DNA of 25,514 nucleotides, from positions 1-25,514 of the forward strand of contig CAXHJY010001604.1 in the NCBI GenBank assembly GCA_964016885.1, in the 5' to 3' direction. The DNA comes from Eledone cirrhosa (taxonomy: Eukaryota). The notes under the pieces are model-generated. The model was given only the letters and a program-made list of their open reading frames with translations. It was not told the DNA's origin and did no database searches. Positions within the stretch are counted from its first letter, which is position 1, and the number at the start of each line of letters is the position of its first letter. Below are positions 2,433-25,514 of the stretch, piece after piece. Made by a program: the position numbers and the translations under genes.

Positions 2433-3252
<820 letters not shown>

Positions 3253-3661
3253 GGTGGCTGCCAACTCGTTTTCGAGTACGGCCACTACTTTATATCCATG
3301 TAGGAGAACCCCTACCGATGCGCTGAACGAATGTGACTTTAGTCCAGCCAGCGACTTGAAAACTCTGGTACAAAGACTACACTTGTGACCATTATTGACA
3401 CATAGTGCAGGGCCCATGGTACCATGTGATGACAAGTGCAGAGAGATCTCCAGATATAAAGCAATGCCTGTGCTGTGAAGCTTTTATAGTGAGCAAAGGC
3501 ACTGCACAAAGCCAGTCCCACTCTCTTAACCAAGATGATATTTACCAAAAAGAAGAACAGGTCAACATCATTGGATACCATCAGGGTTGCAGGTGTTATA
3601 TCAGAGTTTTCCTTCTCCTAGAATTCTGCCTTGACAAAGGCTAAGGGGTCATCTCTCCCGG
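3253..3661 (-). mobile_element. RTE-derived non-autonomous element, 5'-truncated copy
   Basis: ~98% identical to 4584-4994 with the same left (3') end; minus strand encodes zinc-finger remnant [17 protein letters not shown] and a terminal hairpin gtggc..ctcg-aaaa-cgag..gccac. Confidence 0.7.
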
Positions 3662-4583
3662 CATATACATGTATATATACATACATGTATATATACATAT
3701 ACATATACATACATGCACATATACATATATATACATACATACATATACACACATACATACATATATATACATACATACATACACATATACATACATACAT
3801 ACATACATACATACACATACATATACATACACACATATATACATATACATACATACATATACATACATATACACATACATATATATACATACATACACAT
3901 ATACATACATACATACATACATACACATATACATACATACATACATACATACATACACATATATATACATACATATACACATACATACACATACACATAT
4001 ATACATATATATACATACATACACATACATACATACATACATACACATACATACATACATATACATATATACACACACATACATATATATACATATATAC
4101 ACATACATACATATATATACATACATACACATACATACACATACATATACATACATATATACATACACATACATACATATATACATACACATACATATAT
4201 ATATACATACATATATACACATACATACATATACATACACATACACACATATACATACACAACATACATACATATACATACATATACATACATACATACA
4301 CATACATACATATACATACATACATACATATACATACACACACATACATACATATACATACATACATATATATACATATACATACACACATATACATACA
4401 TACATATACACACACATACATACATACATATACATACATACACACATATATATACACATACATACATATATACATATACATACACACATACATATACATA
4501 CATACATACATATACATACATACATATACACAGATACATATATATACATATACATACATACATACATATACATACATACATAT
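3662..4583. repeat. (CATA)n/(CA/TA) compound microsatellite
   Basis: Direct inspection; composition differs from the other tracts. Confidence 0.97.
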
Positions 4584-5193
4584 GGTGGCTGCCAACTCGT
4601 TTTCGAGTACGGCCACTACTTTATATCCATGTAGGAGAACCCCTACCGATGCGCTGAACGAGTGTGACTTTTTAGTCCAGCCAGCGACTTGAAAACTCTG
4701 GTACAAACACTACACTTGTGACAATTACTGACACATAGTGCTGGGCCCATGGTACCATGTGACGACAAGTGCAGAGAGATCTCCAGATATAAAGCAATGC
4801 CTGTGCCGTGAAGCTTTTATAGTGAGCAAAGGCACTGCACAAAGCCAGTCCCACTCTCTTAACCAAGATGATATTTACCAAAAAGAAGAACAAGTCAACA
4901 TCATTGGATACCATCAGGGTTGCAGGTGTTATATCAGAGTTTTCCTTCTCCTAGAATTCTGCCTTGACAAAGGCTAAGGGGTCATCTCTCCCGGTGATTT
5001 TGGATGGCCATTGACTCTTAAGAGCTCCTTTGCCCTTTGACAGGTTTTGTTTTTAGTCCTGCAGGATGTCCAAAGTCACCCTCCTCACCAAGAAACCTTG
5101 GTGGGGGGTTGCCAGTTTAGTCGCCAACGACCCGACCATGAAACAGGTTGTACTGGGATACATGTTACCAGTAGCACCAACTGGTGACCTGAC
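4584..5193 (-). mobile_element. RTE-derived bipartite non-autonomous element (~610 bp), longer copy
   Basis: Minus strand has a motif recalled from RTE 5' regions (ctaggagaaggaaaactctg, 4935-4954), then a C2H2 remnant and a 3' hairpin; no RT or endonuclease. Confidence 0.7.
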
Positions 5194-5291
5194 ATATATA
5201 CATATATATATACATATATATATACATATATATATACATATATACATATATATATACATATATATATGTATATATATACATATATATATAC

Positions 5292-5387
<96 letters not shown>

Positions 5388-5473
5388 ATACATATACATA
5401 CATATATATATACATACATATATATATACATACATATATATATATATACATACATATATATATATATACATAC

Positions 5474-5506
<33 letters not shown>

Positions 5507-5573
5507 CATACACATATATATATATATACATACATATATATATATATACATACATATATATATATATACATAC

Positions 5574-5606
<33 letters not shown>

Positions 5607-5719
5607 ATACATATATATATATATATACATTATATATATATACATATATATAATATATATATACATATATATATATATACATACATATATATATATATAC
5701 ATATATAATATATATATAC

Positions 5720-5754
<35 letters not shown>

Positions 5755-5928
5755 CATATATATATACATATATATATATATACATATATATATATAATAT
5801 ATGTATATATATACATATATATATATACATATGTATATATATACATATATATACATATATATGTATATATACATATATATATACATATATATATATATAT
5901 ACATATATATACATATGTATATATATAC

Positions 5929-5961
<33 letters not shown>

Positions 5962-6039
5962 CATATATATATATGTATATATATATATATGTATATATAT
6001 ACATATATATATATGTATATATATACATATATATATATG

Positions 6040-6104
<65 letters not shown>

Positions 6105-6105
6105 G

Positions 6106-6185
<80 letters not shown>

Positions 6186-6205
6186 CATATATATATATAT
6201 ATATG

Positions 6206-6257
<52 letters not shown>

Positions 6258-6258
6258 C

Positions 6259-6301
<43 letters not shown>

Positions 6302-6302
6302 C

Positions 6303-6342
<40 letters not shown>
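5194..6342. repeat. (TA)n microsatellite
   Basis: Direct inspection. Confidence 0.97.
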
Positions 6343-6348
<6 letters not shown>

Positions 6349-6479
6349 ATAAATGCTCTGAAATAGCGATATATATGTGAATATAGACATAGAATATTCG
6401 AAAATATTCTGTATGTTTATAATAAACATTTTGAAGACCTAATCGCTATAGAATAGAATACGTCACGTATTACAATTAG

Positions 6480-6568
6480 ATTCTCGATAAAAGCAAGGGA
6501 AGTAATCTACGCGTTTCATTCTTGTTAGAAATCATCAGGACTACATATCCAGTGCTTTTATCGAGAAT
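6480..6568 (-). ncRNA. Type I hammerhead ribozyme
   Basis: Reverse complement of 7907-7995. Confidence 0.85.
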
Positions 6569-6789
6569 GACACAGCTAGAGACTTATAGAATACTTAGCT
6601 GTGTACAGGAACTGGTTTGAAAGAGCGGTTGCCGGTCCGGCAGAAATTAGAAATTGGAATAAATGCTCTGAAATAGCGATATATATGTGAATATAGACAT
6701 AGAATATTCGAAAATATTCTGTATGTTTATAATAAAAATTTTGAAGACCTAATCGCTATAGAATAGAATACGTCACGTATTACAATTAG

Positions 6790-6878
6790 ATTCTCGATAA
6801 AAGCAAGGGAAGTAATCTACGCGTTTCATTCTTGTTAGAAATCATCAGGACTACATATCCAGTGCTTTTATCGAGAAT
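6790..6878 (-). ncRNA. Type I hammerhead ribozyme
   Basis: Identical unit copy (+310). Confidence 0.85.
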
Positions 6879-7099
6879 GACACAGCTAGAGACTTATAGA
6901 ATACTTAGCTGTGTACAGGAACTGGTTTGAAAGAGCGGTTGCCGGTCCGGCAGAAATTAGAAATTGGAATAAATGCTCTGAAATAGCGATATATATGTGA
7001 ATATAGACATAGAATATTCGAAAATATTCTGTATGTTTATAATAAACATTTTGAAGACCTAATCGCTATAGAATAGAATACGTCACGTATTACAATTAG

Positions 7100-7188
7100 A
7101 TTCTCGATAAAAGCAAGGGAAGTAATCTACGCGTTTCATTCTTGTTAGAAATCATCAGGACTACATATCCAGTGCTTTTATCGAGAAT
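7100..7188 (-). ncRNA. Type I hammerhead ribozyme
   Basis: Identical unit copy. Confidence 0.85.
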
Positions 7189-7409
7189 GACACAGCTAGA
7201 GACTTATAGAATACTTAGCTGTGTACAGGAACTGGTTTGAAAGAGCGGTTGCCGGTCCGGCAGAAATTAGAAATTGGAATAAATGCTCTGAAATAGCGAT
7301 ATATATGTGAATATAGACATAGAATATTCGAAAATATTCTGTATGTTTATAATAAACATTTTGAAGACCTAATCGCTATAGAATAGAATACGTCACGTAT
7401 TACAATTAG

Positions 7410-7498
7410 ATTCTCGATAAAAGCAAGGGAAGTAATCTACGCGTTTCATTCTTGTTAGAAATCATCAGGACTACATATCCAGTGCTTTTATCGAGAAT
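7410..7498 (-). ncRNA. Type I hammerhead ribozyme
   Basis: Identical unit copy; the next copy (from 7720) is cut inside CUGAUGA by the inversion junction. Confidence 0.85.
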
Positions 7499-7906
7499 GA
7501 CACAGCTAGAGACTTATAGAATACTTAGCTGTGTACAGGAACTGGTTTGAAAGAGCGGTTGCCGGTCCGGCAGAAATTAGAAATTGGAATAAATGCTCTG
7601 AAATAGCGATATATATGTGAATATAGACATAGAATATTCGAAAATATTCTGTATGTTTATAATAAACATTTTGAAGACCTAATCGCTATAGAATAGAATA
7701 CGTCACGTATTACAATTAGATTCTCGATAAAAGCAAGGGAAGTAATCTACGCGTTTCATTCTTGTTAGAAATCGATGTCTATATTCACATATATATCGCT
7801 ATTTCAGAGCATTTATTCCAATTTCTAATTTCTGCCGGACCGGCAACCGCTCTTTCAAACCAGTTCCTGTACACAGCTAAGTATTCTATAAGTCTCTAGC
7901 TGTGTC

Positions 7907-7995
7907 ATTCTCGATAAAAGCACTGGATATGTAGTCCTGATGATTTCTAACAAGAATGAAACGCGTAGATTACTTCCCTTGCTTTTATCGAGAAT
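7907..7995 (+). ncRNA. Type I hammerhead ribozyme
   Basis: Stem I gtagtc (7931-36)/gattac (7968-73); core CTGATGA 7937-43; stem II t-ttct-aaca-agaa-t; GAAA 7958-61; palindromic stem III ACGCGT; GUA triplet with cleavage after 7967; distal 16-bp stem attctcgataaaagca/tgcttttatcgagaat. Confidence 0.88.
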
Positions 7996-8216
7996 CTAAT
8001 TGTAATACGTGACGTATTCTATTCTATAGCGATTAGGTCTTCAAAATGTTTATTATAAACATACAGAATATTTTCGAATATTCTATGTCTATATTCACAT
8101 ATATATCGCTATTTCAGAGCATTTATTCCAATTTCTAATTTCTGCCGGACCGGCAACCGCTCTTTCAAACCAGTTCCTGTACACAGCTAAGTATTCTATA
8201 AGTCTCTAGCTGTGTC

Positions 8217-8305
8217 ATTCTCGATAAAAGCACTGGATATGTAGTCCTGATGATTTCTAACAAGAATGAAACGCGTAGATTACTTCCCTTGCTTTTATCG
8301 AGAAT
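8217..8305 (+). ncRNA. Type I hammerhead ribozyme
   Basis: Identical unit copy (+310). Confidence 0.85.
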
Positions 8306-8526
8306 CTAATTGTAATACGTGACGTATTCTATTCTATAGCGATTAGGTCTTCAAAATGTTTATTATAAACATACAGAATATTTTCGAATATTCTATGTCT
8401 ATATTCACATATATATCGCTATTTCAGAGCATTTATTCCAATTTCTAATTTCTGCCGGACCGGCAACCGCTCTTTCAAACCAGTTCCTGTACACAGCTAA
8501 GTATTCTATAAGTCTCTAGCTGTGTC

Positions 8527-8615
8527 ATTCTCGATAAAAGCACTGGATATGTAGTCCTGATGATTTCTAACAAGAATGAAACGCGTAGATTACTTCCCTT
8601 GCTTTTATCGAGAAT
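8527..8615 (+). ncRNA. Type I hammerhead ribozyme
   Basis: Identical unit copy. Confidence 0.85.
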
Positions 8616-8836
8616 CTAATTGTAATACGTGACGTATTCTATTCTATAGCGATTAGGTCTTCAAAATGTTTATTATAAACATACAGAATATTTTCGAATA
8701 TTCTATGTCTATATTCACATATATATCGCTATTTCAGAGCATTTATTCCAATTTCTAATTTCTGCCGGACCGGCAACCGCTCTTTCAAACCAGTTCCTGT
8801 ACACAGCTAAGTATTCTATAAGTCTCTAGCTGTGTC

Positions 8837-8925
8837 ATTCTCGATAAAAGCACTGGATATGTAGTCCTGATGATTTCTAACAAGAATGAAACGCGTAGAT
8901 TACTTCCCTTGCTTTTATCGAGAAT
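8837..8925 (+). ncRNA. Type I hammerhead ribozyme
   Basis: Identical unit copy. Confidence 0.85.
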
Positions 8926-9146
8926 CTAATTGTAATACGTGACGTATTCTATTCTATAGCGATTAGGTCTTCAAAATGTTTATTATAAACATACAGAATA
9001 TTTTCGAATATTCTATGTCTATATTCACATATATATCGCTATTTCAGAGCATTTATTCCAATTTCTAATTTCTGCCGGACCGGCAACCGCTCTTTCAAAC
9101 CAGTTCCTGTACACAGCTAAGTATTCTATAAGTCTCTAGCTGTGTC

Positions 9147-9235
9147 ATTCTCGATAAAAGCACTGGATATGTAGTCCTGATGATTTCTAACAAGAATGAA
9201 ACGCGTAGATTACTTCCCTTGCTTTTATCGAGAAT
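9147..9235 (+). ncRNA. Type I hammerhead ribozyme
   Basis: Identical unit copy. Confidence 0.85.
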
Positions 9236-9456
9236 CTAATTGTAATACGTGACGTATTCTATTCTATAGCGATTAGGTCTTCAAAATGTTTATTATAAAC
9301 ATACAGAATATTTTCGAATATTCTATGTCTATATTCACATATATATCGCTATTTCAGAGCATTTATTCCAATTTCTAATTTCTGCCGGACCGGCAACCGC
9401 TCTTTCAAACCAGTTCCTGTACACAGCTAAGTATTCTATAAGTCTCTAGCTGTGTC

Positions 9457-9545
9457 ATTCTCGATAAAAGCACTGGATATGTAGTCCTGATGATTTCTAA
9501 CAAGAATGAAACGCGTAGATTACTTCCCTTGCTTTTATCGAGAAT
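9457..9545 (+). ncRNA. Type I hammerhead ribozyme
   Basis: Identical unit copy (gtagtcctgatga at 9481). Confidence 0.85.
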
Positions 9546-9647
9546 CTAATTGTAATACGTGACGTATTCTATTCTATAGCGATTAGGTCTTCAAAATGTT
9601 TATTATAAACATACAGAATATTTTCGAATATTCTATGTCTATATTCA

Positions 9648-11284
<1,637 letters not shown>

Positions 11285-11431
11285 AAGCTTGAAACTAGTA
11301 CATCGTTCCTGTGTCAGTGTTGAACAAAAAGGTGACGTGGTTGCCTTAACACCGTATGGCATAAATTCAGGCTGTTCAGTTTGTTTACAAACGAACAAAG
11401 CGACGTTAGCGCCGCTAAACTGATACGTGCA
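11285..11431. other. Unassigned non-coding island (copy 2)
   Basis: Identical to 1534-1680. Confidence 0.4.
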
Positions 11432-11672
11432 TATATGTATGTGTACCTGTATGCATATGTATGTATATATGTATATATATATATATATATGTGCATGCTA
11501 CTGTACGTCTGTATACATATATGTATGTACGTATACATGCATACTTACATTTAAGTAAGTGCCATACTAAGAGTGAGAAATGAAATTTCGTTTTCATTTT
11601 GTTTCAATATATGTATATATATATATGTATATGTATATATATATGTATATGGATATATATATGTATATATAT

Positions 11673-11704
<32 letters not shown>

Positions 11705-11707
11705 GAT

Positions 11708-12040
11708 GGAGGCACATGGCTTAGTGGTTAGAGCATTGGCCTTGCAATCGAAAGGTTGTGAGTTCAATTCTCAGACTGGGTGATGTGTTGTTTCCTTGAG
11801 CAAGACACTTTATTTCACATTGCTCCAGTTTACTCAGCTGTAGAAATGCGATGATAGGGACTGGGGTCTATATCATTCCACTGCAAAGTGGTCGTGGAGG
11901 TGCCACGGCAAAAAAGCACCCAGCACTCACTGTAAATGAGGTTGGTGTTAGGAAGGGCATCCAGCTGTAGAAATCAAGCCAAAATCAGTTCCCATCCCAC
12001 CCTTGCAAGCAGGGAAAAAGCGGACGTAAAATGTAAAATG
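11708..12040 (+). mobile_element. tRNA-derived CORE-type SINE with RTE-derived 3' part (copy 2)
   Basis: Identical to 1961-2293. Confidence 0.85.
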
Positions 12041-12042
12041 AA

Positions 12043-12093
<51 letters not shown>

Positions 12094-12127
12094 GTATATG
12101 TATATATATATATATGTATATGTATAT

Positions 12128-12161
<34 letters not shown>

Positions 12162-12176
12162 GTATATGTATATATA

Positions 12177-12434
12177 TTTGCTAACCAGCAAAAATCCAAA
12201 CAGAACTGGTCTGATAATGAAATCGACATTCTAATAAACACATGGCATTGCCTTTCCCAAACAGAAGATATAGATGCTTCATCTCTGAACGACATTGCTA
12301 AACGTACAGTTCAATTTTTGAAAACTCGATCTGAACAACAGATTCAAAATAAATTAAAGCAAATCGAAATTGCTTTTAAATTAATCAATAAACATTTGGA
12401 TAAACTACGGTGTGTTTTCTCTTCGAATGCTGTC

Positions 12435-12465
<31 letters not shown>

Positions 12466-13325
12466 AGCAGCTACAACAGCAACAACAACAACAGTTACAA
12501 CAACAACATCAACAGCAACAACAACGACAACAGTGTGAACCACTCCTTGATTCATCAACAATGGCCGATCTACTAAATGAAACTATTGACCCCCCAGTAG
12601 CCTCTGTCTCACAGCATGAAACTCCACATCCTTTCTCTGGCCCAGCAGTCCAATCATCACCACTGCCAACATCTCTGCCTACTACTACTACTACTACTAC
12701 AACATTTTTGTCTACTGCTATGTCAAGGAATTTACCTTCTAATACCAGTACAAGAACTCTCCCTCCCACAGTCCACAAAGGTCGTCAAATCCTACCCAAA
12801 CCATCATCTACACCTCTCACAACACACACACCCACATACCCACCCACTCGAAACCCCATCATTTGCCGCTACTCTCTACGCTATAGAATATGTACGGATA
12901 GTGGCTGCAAATTCACCCATTTACCTAGGACAAAACGATCTATCCCCACAAACAGCCACCACCATAATACATACTCTAATTTAACACCAACACAACCACC
13001 AATAACTCAAACAAGGAATCCACAAATCTGCCGTTTTTCCCTGCGAGACAGATTGTGTTTAGACCGGGATTGTCCCTTTACCCATCTCCCGGGGACCCGT
13101 CGGACAAATGAAAATAAAATTAAAAATAAAAGCAAAAACAAAAACCATAACCTACATAAAAATAACCACTACCACAGTCACCAACAGTCTTCTAAACAGG
13201 AAACTTCTTCCTCTTTTTTAGCCATAATGAATCTGGCAAAAGAACTGGAAAAAAACATTCGAGCTATCACCCAGCACCACCCTCCACTATCACCCCACTG
13301 CACAAACTCCCATTGCTGCCATTAA
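12177..13325 (+). CDS. LINE ORF1 (5'-partial): Myb/SANT-like domain, poly-Q, Pro/Thr linker, two CCCH zinc fingers
   Basis: [13 protein letters not shown]...[13 protein letters not shown]; [19 protein letters not shown] and [19 protein letters not shown] (C-x8-C-x4-C-x3-H). Confidence 0.75.
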
Positions 13326-16300
13326 CAAACAAACAAATTAACAACACACCAAAACAATTAAAACCATCCACTCTCGCCTCTACATTTTTGCTTAACGCCC
13401 AAGGCATCAGCCCTTCCACCAATACTCAAAAATGGAAGATCAAATTCCTGGAGGACTGGATTGATGTCCATCCAAACCACATCCCTTTCTTCGTCCTCAC
13501 TGAAACCCATCTCAGTAACCTCCACTTGGAAGCCGAGGTGAAAGTGAAAAATTTCAAAGCCATCCGTGCTGATCGCGCTGGCAGAAGAAAGGGCGGAACT
13601 GCCATTTATGTCCATAATTCTTTCTCAACAGAGGCTATGAACATATTCACTAATGGATACTGTGAGGCAGTCACTGTATTCAGTCAAACCAACAACCTAT
13701 TAGTAGTTGGGCTCTATAGGCCACCCCAAACGCCTGTACCATGCTTCAAGGAATGCCTCAACAGCATAAAGTGTTTCATCCAAGAGTGTCACCCTGACAA
13801 CATCTTAATGATGGGGGACTTCAACCTCCCCGGAGTTGACTGGTCCACAAACAGCCTGCCACCAGGTTCTTCTGCCTCAACCTCTGACAGGGAAGCTGTG
13901 GAATCGCTTCTTGACTTCATGGATGATTTCTTCCTATCCCAACTGGTGCTCGAACCAACGAGGTGCCACAAAAACGTCCTAGACTTAATTTTCAGCAATC
14001 ACACTGACAATATCCACAATATTGCAGTGGAGAAAACTCTACTCTCTGATCATGACATGGTTCTCTGTGATCTGAGATTCCACCGTCCAATATACAAACC
14101 CAATGTCATCTCTCCTGTCCATCCGTTTGACGCTATGGATTTCCACAATGCAAACTGGGAAGCGATCAGTCATGATCTTGCACATGTCGACTGGTCCTTC
14201 ACGCACACTCATACACCCACTAACATCAAAAAGTCCTGGCAGACATTTGTGGACACTGTTACAAACATATGTGCTAAACACACCCCATTAAGAACTATAA
14301 ACAAATCTAAGAGCAGAATCCCTAGAAATAGAAAAACGCTCATCAGAAAAATTAAGAGAACGAACAAAAAAATCAACAAGCTGAAATACTGTCAGCAGCA
14401 ACACATCAACTTGACTGCCATTTCATCACTAGAGATTAAAAAACATAACCTCCAAAACAACATAATGTCCCTCATCAACAATCAGAGAAGAGCTGAAGAG
14501 GCCTGGGCCATTGAGAAGATCAAACTCAATCCCAAAGTGTTCTTTTCATTTGCAAAAAAACACAAAATCACTGGCTCTACTGTTGGCCCTCTAATTGATG
14601 AAAATGGCACTCTTCAAGACAATGCTAAAACCATGGGTGAGATACTGCAGAAACAATACTGCTCTGTTTTCAGCAATCCTGATATGGCCGATCTGGGCTG
14701 TATCGGCGATGTGCTACTCCCCATTACACCTTATCGGACATAACGTTTGGCGCCCCTGATGTCTTGGCGGCAATAAAGGAAATCAAGCATAATTCAGCAG
14801 TAGGTCCCGATAGGTTCCCTGCTTGTGTCTTGAAGGCGTATCAACACCAACTTGCTTCTCCTCTTGCCAATCTGTGGCGGAACTCACTGGATGCTGGATA
14901 TGTGCCAGAAAACCTTCTATCCCAGTCTGTTGTCCCAGTTTTCAAAAAGGGAAACAAATCCCTTGCCGTGAATTACCGTCCAATCTCACTCACCTCTCAT
15001 ATCATTAAGGTATTTGAGCGAGTGGTGAGATCGCGAATGACCCACTTCCTTGAGAGTAACAATATGCTGAACTCCAACCAGCATGGATTCCGTAATGGAA
15101 GGGATTGCCTGACGCAACTACTGCATCACTTTGATGACATTTTGAGAGCCTTGGGAGAGGGTTCCAACACTGATGTTATCTACCTTGATTTCAGCAAGGC
15201 CTTTGACAGGGTTGATCATAACATTCTACTGAGAAAGCTGTCCAATATTGGTGTCACTGGAAAGCTGCTGCAGTGGATCAAGAGCTTCCTGTCAAACAGA
15301 ACCCAACATGTTGTAGTTGAGGGAGTCAAATCAAGCCCAGCCAAAGTCAGTAGTGGAGTCCCACAAGGCAGTGTTGGGCCCACTTCTCTTCATCATCTAT
15401 ATTAATGACATCACTGACATCATCAAACACAGCAACATTAAAATTTTCGCTGATGATTCCAAGCTCCAAAAGGTCATCAATGGCGTGGATGACCGGATAA
15501 GCCTTCAGTCAGACCTACTGGCTGTTACCCAATGGGCAGAAAAGAATAACATGTTACTGAACGAAGACAAATTCGAACTGATCCACTTTGGAAAAGAGGA
15601 TGCTCTGAAACTCCCGTACTCCCTTCCCTCCGGGGAAACTCTCGTGGCATCTAACAACATCAGAGACTTGGGAGTAACCGTGGACAGCAACATAAGCTGG
15701 ACCACGCATATAAGCAGCAAAGTTGACATGGCCCGCAGAATGTGTTCCTGGATCCTCAGAACCTTCCAGTCGAGAGATTCCCGCACCATTATCCTTCTCT
15801 TCTCTACTTTCGCCCGACCACACCTTGAATACTGTTGTCCACTGTGGTCTCCCCACACGAAACAAAGTATCATGAAACTTGAAGCTCCTCAAAGGGCAAT
15901 CACGAAAAAGATAGATGGCATGTCAGACCTTGACTACTGGGGTCGATTGGAAAACCTGAAACTTTACTCACTCAAACGTCGCCGTGAGCGTTATATTATC
16001 TGCATGATGTGGAAAATGTTCCATCATCACTGCCCAAATGATGTTGGCATCGCCTTCAAGATACACCCAAGGCTTGGGCCCCGTGCTATCCGTCCCATTC
16101 AAAAATCTAAATCGCAACTCATAACAACAATACGGCACAATTATTTCACCTCAATCGGCCCTGCTCTCTTCAACATCACACCAGGACACGTCAAAACAGA
16201 AACTGACCACACAAAATTCAAGAAGTCTTTGGACAAATTCCTCCAAGTAATCCCGGACAAACCACCCACACCCGGATATGTCTCCGCAAACAGTAATTCT

Positions 16301-16333
16301 CTTCTCGAATGGGCCATGGTGCCCAAATCCTGA
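13220..16333 (+). pseudogene. LINE ORF2 (APE endonuclease + reverse transcriptase) with two frameshifts
   Basis: LNAQG, TETHL, YRPP, GDFN, LDLIF, SDH; NYRPISLTS, QHGFR, YLDFSKAFD, GVPQGS/VLGP, FADD; frameshifts near ~14720 and ~15372 (ORF pieces 13313-14743, 14764-15405, 15317-16333). Confidence 0.92.
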
Positions 16334-16400
16334 ATTGAAAGACTTCGCCAGGTGGTGCTATTAAGTTAGACATGGCCTGGGCCAATACTGGCCAAAACAT

Positions 16401-16430
16401 TTCAAAGTTATTCAAAGTTATTCAAAGTTA
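16401..16430 (+). repeat. LINE 3' tail (TTCAAAGTTA)x3, preceded by the ggcca-atac-tggcc hairpin
   Basis: Direct inspection; short tandem tails are typical of CR1-group LINEs. Confidence 0.85.
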
Positions 16431-16441
16431 TATATATATAC

Positions 16442-16472
<31 letters not shown>

Positions 16473-17710
16473 CTAGAGAATAAATTCCAAACCTGGAAGC
16501 AGGGACTAGAGAGAAAGGGCCTCAAAGTCAACATAACAAAGACTAAGGTCCTTGTAAGTAGACGAGAAAACAGAACCCAGATCCCCTCAGGGAAATGGCC
16601 TTGCTCAGTATGTAGGAAAGGTGTAGGTAGAAACTCCATTCTCTGCCCCAAATGCAAACAATGGGTACACAAGAGATGTAGCGGGATCTCAGGAAGCTTA
16701 ATTAAGAATGTAGGATTCACATGCAGCAGCTGTGCTGAAACAGCAAGCAAACAGCCACAGGAAACAAGTACCACCAATCTCTGGGAGGGCCCTGTAGAAA
16801 CAGTAGACAGCTTCTGCTACCTAGGTGACCGAATTAGCAACGGAGGTGGGTGCTCAGAAAGTACAATAACTAGGGTAAGAACGGGATGGAAGAAGTTTAG
16901 GGAACTACTACCACTGCTAGCTGCAAAAGGCTTCTCCCTCAGAATGAAAGGCAGACTGTATGATGCGTGTATCCGAACAGCGATGTTGCATGGTAGTGAG
17001 ACCTGGGCGCTGAAGGTGGAAGACTTACGTAGATTAGAGAGAAACGAAGCCTGCATGCTCCGATGGATGTGTAACAGTAATATACGTGAACGACAAAGCA
17101 TAAATGAATTGAGAGAGAGACTGAGCATAAGAGGAATCAAATGCTGCGTGCAGGAGAGGCGGTTACGCTGGTATGGACATGTGATGCGTATGAAGGATGA
17201 CAGCTGCATAAAAAGGTGCAGAGCACTAGAAGTTGATGGAAACCGCGGAGTGGGGAGACCCAAGATGACTTGGGATGAGGTGATAAAAGCCGACCTTACC
17301 CAACTACACCTCTCAAAGTCAATGACACACGACCGTGACTTCTGGCGTCACGCAGTAATACAGGGTACCCGACCTCCCATGGGTACATGCTGAAGCATAT
17401 AAACAATATGCACCCCCCCCCCCCCCCCCCTCCACCGCAAGGTGGCCGTGGAGGTGCCACGGCAAAAAAGCACCCAGCCCACACTGTAAAGTGGACGTGT
17501 AGGCGCCACAAAAAAGCACCCAGCACTCACTGTAAATGAGGTTGGTGTTAGGAAGGGCATCCAGCTGTAGAAATCAAGCCAGATCAGTTCCTGTATGAGC
17601 AAGGCATGGTCAGCCGACCAGACACTGCCCACAACAGGACAACCCGTCTAACCCATGCTAGCGTGGAAGAACGGACGTAAAACGGTGATGATGATGATGA
17701 TGATGATGAT
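16473..17710 (+). mobile_element. RTE-clade LINE, strongly 5'-truncated, long-3'UTR subfamily
   Basis: Open frame 16473-17393 (LENKFQTWK...PHD...FCYLGD...[11 protein letters not shown]...GRPK), C18 tract, 3' module and (GAT)n tail. Confidence 0.92.
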
Positions 17711-19033
<1,323 letters not shown>

Positions 19034-21726
19034 CCACAATGACAGAGGACGGAGACATCGTTATGCTAGCAGGAGACTTCAATGGTCATGTTGGACAGCT
19101 CCAGGATGGTTACACTGGGGTACATGGTGGGCACGGTTACGGTTCAAGAAATGAAGAAGGAGTGAGACTTCTTGAATCTTGTGATGCAAGTACATTGACT
19201 ATTTGCAACACAAACTTCCAGAAACCTGCCAATCACCTAATAACCTACAAATCTGGTGAGCACATAAGCCAGATTGACTTCCTGCTAGTTAGGCAGCGGG
19301 ACAGGCAGATAGTGTCTAATACCAAGGCATACCCTGGGGAAGAATGTACCCCACAGCATAGGTTAGTTGTTAGTGATATCTCAGTAAGCAAGAGATGGAA
19401 TGAGACATATAGGAAGGTGTGGAGAAGAAAGGTCTGGAAGCTAAAAGACCTTTCACTAAAATTCAAATTTAGGAAAGCCCTTCAAGATGTATATGACGAA
19501 AAACAAGACGATTTAGAGACGTATGACATAGATAATAACTGGAAGTTCTTACGTGACAACTTGCTGCAGGCTACTGATGAAACCTGTGGCTGGAGCAGAG
19601 CTCCAACCAGACAGAGAGTGACCTGGTGGTGGAACAGCACAGTAGATAAGGCTATTAGAGACAAAAGACTAGCATGGAAGGCTTGGAAAAAGGGTGGGAG
19701 TAGGGAAGAATATACAGCCACTAAGAGAGAAGCTAGACGTCAGGTGTACTTAGCACGCAGGGAGGCAGAGAGTAGGAGGTTTGCCAATATTCTGCGACGG
19801 GAAGATCAGAGGCGTGCGGTGTTCCACATTGCAAGGCAGTGTGTCAATGCAAATCAGGATGTTGTTGGTGATAAATGTGTCCGGGATGATGCCGGTGTAC
19901 TTAGTGTCACGAATGACCAGAAAAAGGAGGCCTGGAAATGTCATTATGAGAGACTGATGAATGTGGAGAACGAATGGGAGAGAGAGAAATTACCCTTGGT
20001 AGATCCGACAGAGAGACCAGCTATTGAGATTGACGAATATAGGGTCCAAGAGGCGATTAGGGAAATGAAAAATGGTAAGGCGGCCGGACCATCGGGAATA
20101 GTTGCTGAGATGCTGAAGGCATCAGGGGACGTAGGCACTAAACTGGTTGCACGTATCATCAATCAGGCTATATATGGTGGTGTCATACCCAAAGACTGGT
20201 GCAGCAGTATTCTCATAAATTGCTACAAAGGTAAAGGGGATGCTTTGGAGAGGAGCAATTATAGGGGTATAAAACTGATAGATCAGGTTATGAAAGTGGC
20301 AGAAAGGATTTTAGCACAACTAATTAGAGAAAGGGTCAAACTAGATGAGATGCAGTTTGGTTTTGTGCCTGGGAAGAGTACAACAGATGCCCTCTTCTTG
20401 GTGAGACAAATGCAAGAGAGGTTCTTAGAGAAGAATAAGCCACTATACTTAGCCTTTGTTGACCTAGAGAAGGCCTTTGATAGGGTACCCCGATCTGTCA
20501 TCTGGTGGTCCCTAAGGAAGCTGGGTGTTGAGGAATGGCTTGTGAGGACAGTGCAAACTTTGTACAGAGGTACTCTCAGTAAAGTCAGGGTAGGAATGGA
20601 GTTTAGTGAGGAATTCCAGATACAAGTAGGAGTACATCAGGGTTCGGTCCTCAGCCCGCTCTTGTTCATTATAGTCCTCCAAGCCATAACAGAGGAGTTT
20701 AAGACTGGCTGTCCATGGGAACTTCTCTATGCTGACGATCTGGCTCTTATGGCAGAATCAGTAGAGGAGCTAGAGAATAAATTCCGGCTATGGAAACAGC
20801 AGTTGGAAGCAAGAGGACTGAGAGTAAATCTAGCTAAGACAAAAGTGTTGATGAGTAGAAAAGAGGACAAAACCCTGATTCCGTCAGGGAAATGGCCATG
20901 TTCAATATGCAGAAAAGGAACTGGCATAAATTCTATAAAATGCACACAATGCAGGTCTTGGGTACACAAGAGATGTAGCGGGATAGCAGGCAAACTAACA
21001 GGTAGGGAGAAATATGTATGCAGTAGATGTACAGGGAAATTAGACAGTAGAAGTCGCACTGATAGACACATTTTTCAAATGCGAGAGGGCGCTATAGAAG
21101 TGGTGGATAGCTTCCGGTACCTAGGAGATCAGATTAGCATGGGAGGAGGGTGTTCCGAGGCCATAGTATCTAGAATAAGGACGGGTTGGAAGAAGTTTAG
21201 GGAGCTGCTTCCTCTGTTGACGAAGAAGGGTTTCTCCCTGCGTACGAAAGGCCGGTTGTATGATGCCTGTGTGAGGAGCGCGATGCTGCATGGTAGTGAG
21301 ACATGGGCAGCAACCGCAGAGGATATGCGACGGCTGGAGAGAAATGAGGCAAGCATGCTCCGTTGGATGTGCAGTGTAAATGTGCGTGAACGACCCAGCA
21401 TAAATGTGTTGAGAGAGAAACTGTGTCTGAGAGGGATAGAATGTAGTGTACGGGAGAGGAGACTGAGGTGGTATGGACATGTGATGCGCATGGAGGATGA
21501 CCGATGGGTGAAGAAGTGCCAGGAAATGCCAGTTGAAGGAAGACGTGGTAGAGGTAGACCACGAAAAACATGGGCGGAGGTGGTGAGAACAGACCTCAGA
21601 TCATTGAAGCTCACGGTGGAGATGACGAGGGACCGTGACGAGTGGAGAGATGCTGTGCTGAATAAGACTCGTCCCACCCTTGCAAGCAGGGAAAAGCGGA
21701 CGTAAAATGATGATGATGATGATGAT
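19034..21726 (+). mobile_element. RTE-clade LINE, 5'-truncated in the endonuclease, with essentially no 3'UTR and a (GAT)n tail
   Basis: Stop codon at 21705 directly followed by aa(tga)n. Confidence 0.95.
19039..21705 (+). CDS. RTE ORF (partial APE endonuclease + RT + PHD insertion), uninterrupted 888 aa
   Basis: [78 protein letters not shown]. Confidence 0.93.
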
Positions 21727-24426
<2,700 letters not shown>

Positions 24427-24449
24427 ATACATATATATATATATACATG

Positions 24450-24526
<77 letters not shown>
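24427..24526. repeat. (TA)n spacer between head-to-head RTE copies
   Basis: Direct inspection. Confidence 0.95.
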
Positions 24527-24527
<1 letters not shown>

Positions 24528-25514
24528 ACACTAAATCCCTCCCCCATGAAGAATGCACCTCCCAACATAGACTGATAATTAGCGACCTCATAGTCAGGAC
24601 GAGACGTACTCGACAACAGAAGAGGACTATCCTCAGGAGGAAAATATGGAAGCTAAAGGACCCCACAGCCAGGAATAAATTTCAAAGCATATTACTTGAT
24701 GCTTTCGACAGTAAGGAAGAACATTTAGAGTCGGACAATATAGAGGGAGAGTGGGAATTTCTGAAAGCAAACCTGCTGTTGGCGACAGACGAGGTCTGTG
24801 GCTGGAGCAGGCCTGTAGGCAGGAGGAGAGTAACATGGTGGTGGAACAGTAAGGTGGAGGGGTCAATTAAGACCAAAAAGCAGGCTTGGAAAGTATGGCG
24901 GGATGGGGGAAGTAGAGAGGACTATCAAGTGGCCAGGAGGGAAGCTAGGAGACAAGTGTACTTAGCAAGAAGGGAAGCTGAGGAAAGAAAGTTCAAGCAT
25001 GTTCTACAACGCGATGACCAAAAACGTGAGGTGTTCAGGATTGCTAGGCAATGCGTCAAGGAAAACCGTGATATTGTCGGGGAGAAGTGTGTACTAAACG
25101 ACGATGGCACACTTGCCATCACCGACACTGATAAGAAGGTAGCTTGGAAGTGTCACTATGAAAGGCTACTAAATGAGGAGAATAAATGGGAGAAAGACAG
25201 TCTCCCCCATATCGACCCAATAGAGGGACCAGCAGTGTTAGTCGAGGGGAGTATAATAAGTAAGGCAATCAAGGATATGAAGACTGGTAAGGCGGCTGGG
25301 CCTTCGGAAATAGTTGCTGAGATGCTGAAGGCATCTGGCACGGTGGGACACACCATGGTCACCCGCATAGTTAACCAAGTCGTACAGAATGGGGTTGTTC
25401 CGAAGGACTGGCATAGTAGCATCATCGTTAACTGTTATAAGGGTAAAGGAGACGCCCTAGATAGGAGTAACTATAGAGGCATTAAATTAATCGACCAGGT
25501 CATGAAGGTCACGG
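24527..25514 (+). mobile_element. RTE-clade LINE, 5'-truncated, running off the window; sibling of 22140-24426
   Basis: Open frame [20 protein letters not shown]...VTWWWN...[15 protein letters not shown]; 25005-25514 is ~99% identical to the reverse complement of 23917-24426. Confidence 0.93.

Follow-up and report, generated by a model that had tools for sequence, protein, structure and literature searches.

How does a non-coding repeat that carries a ribozyme come to lie in a genome as long arrays of nearly identical units? The question is raised by a 25,514-nucleotide stretch of DNA from Eledone cirrhosa (assembly GCA_964016885.1, contig CAXHJY010001604.1; hereafter the window), in which 310-bp units with hammerhead ribozyme motifs lie between (TA)n microsatellites. 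An earlier reading made from the letters alone (the sequence-only reading) described a tandem array of ~10.7 units. Tandem Repeats Finder returned two 310-bp arrays, at 6343-7773 (4.6 copies) and 7775-9656 (6.1 copies), with 99% matches and a deviation from perfect repeats of one base per block. The total of 10.7 units across both was right, but the single run was not: the blocks are inverted, with the RNA 5' ends of both arms meeting at 7773/7775, and the opposite strands had gone unmentioned. The array is two back-to-back arms within (TA)n, not a single tandem run. The locus is one insertion, and we propose that it probably arose in one step, when a Penelope-type (Neptune-like) reverse transcriptase (RT)-endonuclease copied one predicted circular RNA from both ends of the cut DNA. 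Unit positions are counted from window position 7968, the base after the predicted ribozyme cut (position 1).

Two-armed insertions with fixed outer ends

Further copies were located in the 3.0-Gb host genome using sequence patterns for the ribozyme or for specific array ends. The window's 43-nucleotide (nt) ribozyme had 4,177 exact genome matches, while the control had 0. End-specific patterns retrieved 1,265 ends of one type (A-ends) and 1,312 of another (B-ends) running into TA repeats. The host carries at least 1,312 insertions, which are dispersed, are made up of unit sequence between TA tracts and lack long terminal repeats (LTRs). Rough scaling puts the whole family at ~1,700 loci and 13,000-14,000 units (about 13,600), or 0.14% of the genome. 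The family is young, its copies being 98-100% identical to the unit.

The outer ends fall at two sites in the unit, A at positions ~130-139 and B at 163-170, and in the first loci listed minus-strand copies precede plus-strand copies. On C1:1-210.7 Mb, 194 ends were listed, and each of their 63 outward-facing pairs joined an A-end to a B-end (29 A-B and 34 B-A, with 0 A+A or B+B; p 1e-19), spanning a median of 2.6 kb. The remaining 68 ends were unpaired, and 20 of these were retrieved. Six belonged to one-armed loci, one with a 10-nt B stub, while 14 belonged to two-armed loci carrying a variant end that the pattern had missed; the 12 of these with both ends read were all A+B. Twelve loci, first found by the ribozyme pattern and not the end pattern, also had outer ends adjoining TA repeats, at sites A (~139) and B (165-167) only. 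Overall, two-armed loci with both ends read were A+B in 78 of 78 cases. Left out of this count were loci with a single arm, L033 because of an assembly gap, L037, L186 and L187 because their far end lies beyond the stretch, and a partial second copy in L058. Many distinct inversion joints were also present in short-read contigs of the host-like run X2, so the inversion is not a long-read artefact.

Unit positions 140-165, which we call the tail following the usage in the available text of PMC8557442 and PMC11167929, occur at one end of the window array only (Table 1). The outer end of the right arm has AT-repeat microhomology with the target, and its final unit carries the target's T (9648) instead of C. 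The same replacement, at unit position 131, was seen in about half of the listed A-ends, which fits a (TA)n primer paired to the AU repeat of the RNA. Because both flanks are (TA)n, in the window and at further loci, a target-site duplication is unreadable.

Inner ends, unlike outer ends, were spread evenly along the unit (p 0.20). We considered and rejected arrays that stop at the ribozyme cut site, as no outer end and only 3 of 156 inner ends lay there (within 5 nt). Microhomology of at least 3 nt was present at 15 of 35 insert-free junctions, compared to 6.6% by chance. These values come from exact extension at 49 loci; mismatch-tolerant overlap lengths overstate microhomology and were set aside.

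Several loci carried additional features. Between the arms of one locus lies 272 nt of unrelated sequence (L036:2599-2870), possibly from a template switch, and three inner junctions hold short rearranged unit pieces (L043:2343-2520, L034:3894-3905 and L042:3546-3558) that suggest repeated re-priming during joining. The right flank at L038:4486-5850 is a different tandem repeat of ~0.6 kb that is high-copy in run X2. Another small two-armed hammerhead element occurs in TA tracts (L119 ~6130-6335, L120 ~2640-2845, L138 and L192:2029-2054); its stem II resembles that of the 310-bp unit and its stem III is longer.

Ribozyme fold and constraint

The ten complete type I hammerheads claimed by the sequence-only reading were all found, four on the minus strand (cores at 6532, 6842, 7152 and 7462) and six on the plus strand (7937 + 310n). 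The predicted cut after GUA (7967) is consistent with core numbering, and the claimed 310-nt monomer, 7968-8277, matches the spacing of predicted cut sites. In line with the claim that the unit has no coding capacity, the longest Met-initiated open reading frame (ORF) in the plus arm has 30 amino acids (aa). The ribozyme domain folded as described, with a 6-bp stem I, a 3-bp inner helix and a 16-bp helix (z -6.46; 0 of 200 shuffles equally stable), and the monomer gave z -4.38, with 0 of 100 shuffles equally stable. Stem III is palindromic.

The ribozyme assignment also has weak points. An Rfam scan, which had been suggested as a check, matched exactly the ten motif places, but only with Hammerhead_HH9, and at 19.2 bits (E 0.27) compared to a gathering score of 52; these places were the sole matches listed for that family. 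Stem II begins with a U-U mismatch, stem III is a palindrome of only 2 bp, and the minimum-energy fold pairs part of the core and is more stable by 1.5 kcal/mol than the cleavage-type fold when the latter is scored without stem III. Axolotl retrozymes are described as having a U-U mismatch at the base of stem II and a short palindromic stem III, and as cleaving better as dimers (PMC7229834); the mismatch of HHR_Amex2 is at the same place as in the window unit. When the entire window was scanned with Rfam, the 150 matches listed out of 333 were microRNA families hitting TA repeats beneath the cut-off, and they were dismissed.

Variation between copies points to constraint on the core. None of 29 fixed variant types fell at the 12 core bases, while the 12 types inside the ribozyme were at N7, in loop II, at position 10.1 (where the change yields an A-U pair) or in stem I (p about 0.02). 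A tail-region motif gave 5,681 additional matches in older sister families, from which five full monomers of 313-322 nt were 68-71% identical to the unit; many of the 30 sister loci printed terminate in TA repeats just beyond site B. Across 16 aligned ribozyme domains from the family and its sisters, 94.8% of cells pair, compared to 86.1% in shuffles and 40-54% in slid controls, with both-side changes in 13 of 28 pairs. The tertiary C3-G8 pair is replaced by U3-A8 in eight of the 16 domains, through two changes on the tree; this core variant is already published for Penelope-like element (PLE) hammerheads (PMC4209133). The aligned set is open to objection, since it represents ~three lineages, was selected by shared anchor motifs and has the window row misaligned by one column at the cut site. 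Conservation and covariation of the core, including C3-G8/U3-A8, were thus both seen across genomic copies and sister families, and the proposal of a type I hammerhead non-LTR retrozyme was borne out in this respect.

The best-kept part of the unit lies elsewhere: the four best-kept 20-nt windows compared to sister families are in positions 61-200 (80-87%, vs 55-61% in the ribozyme arms). A best-kept region containing the start sites is as expected for an enzyme-binding element, and we regard it as a candidate. The sister retrozyme families themselves (L084:2433-2876; L128-L157), of 313-322 nt, have a longer palindromic stem III and C3-G8 or U3-A8 cores, and a 163-nt spacing at C1:56078493-56078836 suggests a half-size unit in older sister families.

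Mobilising enzyme and template

Published PLE insertions carry, next to their 5' end, an inverted copy that is itself 5'-truncated; a tail of 30-40 bp is confined to one end, and the targets are (TA)n (PMC8557442). In vitro, a PLE protein cut and extended both strands, with reverse transcription beginning at two neighbouring internal sites that delimit the tail, and the protein is predicted to be a dimer (PMC11167929). The retrozyme family has each element of this footprint: a PLE-type inverted 5'-truncated copy in the 78 two-armed loci, two start sites with a tail at one end only, as in endonuclease-bearing (EN+) PLEs, and outer ends adjoining TA repeats, the preferred EN+ PLE target. We therefore consider PLE-type mobilisation very likely. 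The sequence-only reading had proposed a borrowed RT, which this footprint supports, with a PLE the most likely source of the enzyme.

No autonomous PLE ORF (RT plus GIY-YIG) occurs within the window array. The host genome is rich in GIY-YIG matches (10,596 first-look candidates, of which 150 were scored), and the long frames retrieved combine an RT with a C-terminal GIY-YIG and a CxxxxCxxC motif preceding the nuclease. Since that motif is described before the nuclease of Neptune and Nematis (PMC8557442), we call the host proteins Neptune-type on this motif alone. Their named relatives in a protein search were mostly bivalve, at no more than 66% identity. In all 11 of the two-armed host PLE loci read, one long-end arm and one short-end arm lie in TA repeats. 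Their tails measure 62, 35, 38 and 49 nt, and their order is hammerhead-like core, A, B, with spacings that bracket the unit's 170 and 196 nt.

Five PLE families were compared in a search for the partner by tail likeness. The best candidate was the L110 family, represented among the 149 scored by about 100 copies with amino-acid identity of at least 90%, and with open 796-aa frames in six of six copies chosen for that length. Naturally open frames also occur in the L108, L111 and L119 families. Its ends align with sites A and B, but 34 of 500 shuffles did as well, so the likeness is not significant and L110 was not accepted as the partner; this counts against naming a specific enzyme. A U3-A8 hammerhead core was present in three of the four PLE families examined here. 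In the 3' untranslated regions of L108, L110 and L119, these Neptune-type PLEs have U3-A8 hammerhead-like cores, which canonical descriptors would overlook. In L110-family copies, an upstream ORF overlaps the 796-aa RT-endonuclease frame.

Variants within and between the arms bear on the template. In 54 of 78 loci, variants were present in every unit of both arms, giving 26 haplotypes, 18 of them seen once; one such variant, a 2-nt deletion, is present in 22 of 22 units, and another, A88T, in 25 of 25. Arms longer than 5 kb were represented by their outer 4,960 nt. As fixed variants are common to both arms, both would normally have copied one template, and as a new change fills the whole array, a single-unit bottleneck must have been followed by multiplication, which rolling-circle reverse transcription gives directly. 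The arms traverse the cut site without unit-to-unit insertions or deletions; since they cross it cleanly and the inner ends avoid no position, the template was covalently continuous. Where the two arms overlap in coverage (72.5 kb), 72 differences were private to one arm and two loci had mirrored ones; linear copying of arrays with the present degree of mixture would predict up to 36 mirrored differences. This value is an upper bound because the parent arrays were younger and some private calls may be errors. These patterns suggest that the template was probably, though not firmly, mainly a circle, through rolling-circle copying of one monomer. Six of 78 loci have fixed 1-nt insertions two bases past the cut; we considered these as ligation scars at the cut site, but they are inherited haplotypes preserving stem I pairing and were not counted.

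Several observations pull away from a monomer circle, and some of them would suit the same PLE enzyme and start sites with an uncleaved linear multimer transcript as the usual template, circles being rare or unneeded. In L061 and L067, each arm repeats the differences of the other, unit by unit, when both are followed inward from the outer ends; a monomer circle cannot yield this, and a multimeric template is needed. At position 276 of L190, every one of the four units compared differs between the arms, suggesting that two templates were used. Assembly errors among the private differences, if present, would lower the expected mirrored count, and apart from the window every locus lies in the first half of a single contig. 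Amplification after insertion is shown by periodic variants in L034/L035, L036 and L063/L064, with later unequal exchange in three long arms. The one PLE studied in vitro, from anole, used uncleaved RNA as its dominant template, with ribozyme cleavage unneeded (PMC11167929), and of nine predicted frog retrozyme dimers only one cleaved in vitro (bioRxiv 10.64898/2026.07.22.740005). Read-through of the cut site is equally compatible with uncleaved RNA. What makes the linear multimer unlikely as the usual template is that mirrored loci number only two of 78 against the 72 private differences, that 26 whole-locus haplotypes demand repeated single-unit bottlenecks followed by multiplication, and that fixed variants spare the catalytic core.

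Three further explanations were weighed. Expansion in place of one- or two-unit PLE-type insertions by unequal crossing-over, like a satellite, has in its favour period-7 and period-27 variant patterns in two long arms and a recurring A45G in one L036 arm; local amplification has also been proposed for retrozymes (bioRxiv 10.64898/2026.07.22.740005). Most loci, however, have two multi-unit arms that match the unit at 98-100% identity and carry their fixed variants in common, while recurring private variants are absent from most arms. Unequal crossing-over cannot expand a single unit. We consider this origin very improbable. Mobilisation by a long interspersed nuclear element (LINE; RTE- or CR1-like), with inversion from L1-type twin priming or from a broken, flipped concatemer, has in its favour the LINE-type RT and endonuclease frames beside TA tracts in the window. 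It predicts an inner end adjoining the other arm's outer end, but positions 125-175 hold 21 of 156 inner ends (25.7 expected), and in eight of 78 loci the inner ends of the arms are no more than 15 nt apart (7.8 expected). With inner ends at chance level, twin priming and a single broken concatemer were rejected; both outer ends are moreover fixed internal sites, as in PLEs, and the unit has no added simple-repeat 3' tail, so that LINE mobilisation is largely refuted and scarcely credible. An assembly artefact produced by fold-back reads, or an ordinary satellite whose hammerhead-like motif arose by chance, could be suspected from a small unplaced 25.5-kb contig rich in simple repeats and from an Rfam score under the family cut-off. 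It is refuted, with almost no probability left to it, by arms that differ in length and end at different fixed sites, by inversion joints in short-read contigs, by loci dispersed on a chromosome-scale contig and by covariation of the core.

Copying of a circle by a PLE enzyme would then proceed as follows. An existing array would be transcribed as a multimer, and its hammerheads would cut after GUA, probably as dimers via the palindromic stem III, releasing a 310-nt monomer that would be ligated into a circle. This step is proposed because of published retrozymes and because both arms share fixed variants and clean joints. The PLE protein, probably a dimer, would bind around unit positions 61-200 and cut both strands of the (TA)n, the target seen at the loci. 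One DNA end would prime at B and the other at A by pairing with the AU repeat of the RNA; the fixed outer ends and the one-A-one-B rule are the direct observations behind this step. Both enzymes would travel round the same template, past the cut site, for a variable number of turns. The two cDNA ends would halt at random unit positions and be joined, often via 1-7 nt of microhomology, as the junctions show, and some long arms would later be reshuffled by unequal exchange, as their periodic variants show. We give even weight to a more specific picture: a dimeric PLE enzyme whose two active sites, each beginning at its own fixed site, follow one another around a single ribozyme-made RNA circle.

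Window features and relation to known elements

Table 1. Coordinates of the array, its ribozymes and its flanks in the window
Feature	Position	Strand	Description
Left target flank, (TA)n-rich microsatellite	5194..6342	.	Tandem Repeats Finder
Left arm	6343..7773	-	4.6 units; site B (unit position 165) forms the outer, RNA 3' end and adjoins (TA)n
Tail, unit positions 140-165	6343..6368	-	Terminates the left arm; missing from the end of the right arm
Outermost minus-strand hammerhead	6488..6553	-	Others at 6798-6863, 7108-7173 and 7418-7483
Inner junction	7773..7775	.	5'-truncated arm ends (unit positions 285 and 118) with one additional base between
Right arm	7775..9656	+	6.1 units; outer end is site A (unit positions ~130-139)
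Hammerhead domain including its 16-bp closing helix	7907..7995	+	7907-7922 pairs with 7980-7995; period 310 nt
Type I hammerhead	7931..7973	+	Stem I 7931-7936/7968-7973, core 7937-7943, stem II 7945-7956, GAAA 7958-7961
Predicted 310-nt monomer, cut site to cut site	7968..8277	+	Unit positions 1-310; 34% GC
Unit positions 61-200	8028..8167	+	Hairpin and both reverse-transcription start sites; candidate enzyme-binding region
Right target flank, (TA)n-rich microsatellite	9657..11283	.	Tandem Repeats Finder

Upstream of the ribozyme, a CCAAT motif (8128-8132, unit positions 161-165) and a TATA-like motif (8196-8204, unit positions 229-237) lie 66 nt apart. By analogy with PLE pseudo-LTRs, where the arrangement is the same, the pair is a possible internal promoter, a speculative suggestion given that the TATA-like motif was a selection anchor.

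The rest of the window holds other elements. A CR1/L2-type LINE (11284-16333) begins immediately past the right TA flank, with a Q-rich ORF1 at about 12180-13322 that has no Pfam match, followed by frameshifted APE endonuclease and RT frames. Positions 1-2748 and 9722-12493 form a 2.7-kb duplication (96.6%) of a TA tract and the 5' part of the LINE, whose first 150 non-repeat bases are identical. A second local duplication (2740-3661 and 4073-4994; 86.8% including simple repeats) has short frames resembling the N-terminus of a non-LTR ORF. At 16365-25514 are four RTE-like LINE pieces with an RT and an internal PHD-like finger, including an 884-aa open stretch at 19051-21702. They end in TGA repeats beside TA tracts, and their best database match in a protein search was 54%, with no close relative named.

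The unit was also detected in twenty listed sequencing runs under 17 organism labels (at least 0.76 of words), with no RNA run among those listed. X1, X3 and X5 contain it without any difference, and in X2 its depth is about 240,000-fold. X12 and X4 contain it at 0.15% and 0.05% of the X2 level, and in them the unit and neighbouring host repeats occur together at 0.02-0.15% of X2. Raw reads of organism J (X21, 1,938 million letters) gave none on the unit, and metagenome and viral contigs gave 0 matches. Eight of the 24 runs listed were compared on the locus with its flanks. Horizontal transfer or an infectious viroid-like RNA was rejected in favour of trace carry-over for organisms D and J, as host repeats co-occur and raw reads lack the unit.

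Metazoan non-LTR retrozymes are described as tandem, non-coding units of 150-450 bp with less than 45% GC and one type I hammerhead each (Cervera and de la Pena 2020, PMC7229834), a class that already includes a mollusc (mussel) example. The window unit is alike in size (310 bp), GC (34%), lack of coding sequence and one hammerhead per unit, and also in its short palindromic stem III, thousands of copies and co-existence with PLEs. By unit size, GC content, ribozyme type and dispersal, the 310-bp family, known here from DNA, is best classified as a non-LTR retrozyme. Mobilisation from circles by a PLE or LINE is a hypothesis in that paper, whereas the insertion footprint is read directly here; the words 'inverted', 'orientation', 'octopus' and 'cephalopod' do not occur in its main text as available.

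Li, Clavereau and Pollet 2026 (bioRxiv 10.64898/2026.07.22.740005) propose that retrozymes descend from PLE pseudo-LTRs and use PLE enzymes, and the unit shares the pseudo-LTR order of hammerhead, site A, site B. They argue from co-occurrence and phylogeny, largely in vertebrates, and suggest that tandem growth comes from local amplification, while our data favour arrays made at insertion. In the text available, 'tail' and 'orientation' do not occur and 'inverted' appears only within a reference.

The footprint itself is common to EN+ PLEs of Neptune and Naiad type (Craig et al. 2021, PMC8557442; Frangieh et al. 2024, PMC11167929), which differ from the window unit in that the unit has no ORF and is repeated up to about 45 times per arm. 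Strict one-A-one-B pairing and a shared template for both arms were not found stated in the available text of either paper. The start sites of the anole PLE have no homology to its target (PMC11167929), unlike the AU-repeat site A of the unit. Compared to PLE hammerheads (Cervera and de la Pena 2014, PMC4209133), the sister families share the U3-A8 core, while the window family has the canonical C3-G8. A palindromic stem III, which suggests dimeric cleavage, is common to both, and the long closing helix is the window family's difference. Among titles and abstract openings in the open full-text literature, with most subscription papers and Repbase outside, we found no two-armed retrozyme insertions and no cephalopod retrozyme. 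Within that scope, the two-arm one-A-one-B rule for a retrozyme and the variant data for a shared template appear to be new, and provide genomic support for a mechanism already proposed.

Re-entry of non-LTR retrozymes into the genome has been proposed and not shown (PMC7229834), with its mechanisms described as still to be elucidated (bioRxiv 10.64898/2026.07.22.740005), and the available text of PMC8557442 names the formation of tandem and inverted PLE insertions as a next task. The youth of this family means that ends and variants can be read almost as they were laid down. With its short, well-defined template, its target, its pair of mapped start sites and candidate enzymes whose frames are open, the family also makes the choice between circle and multimer directly testable in vitro. 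If the circle-copying mechanism is true, copying from two sites would provide one mechanism for the long-noted inverted-copy-plus-tail structure of PLEs, and animal 'hammerhead satellites' would arise full-length by rolling-circle reverse transcription.

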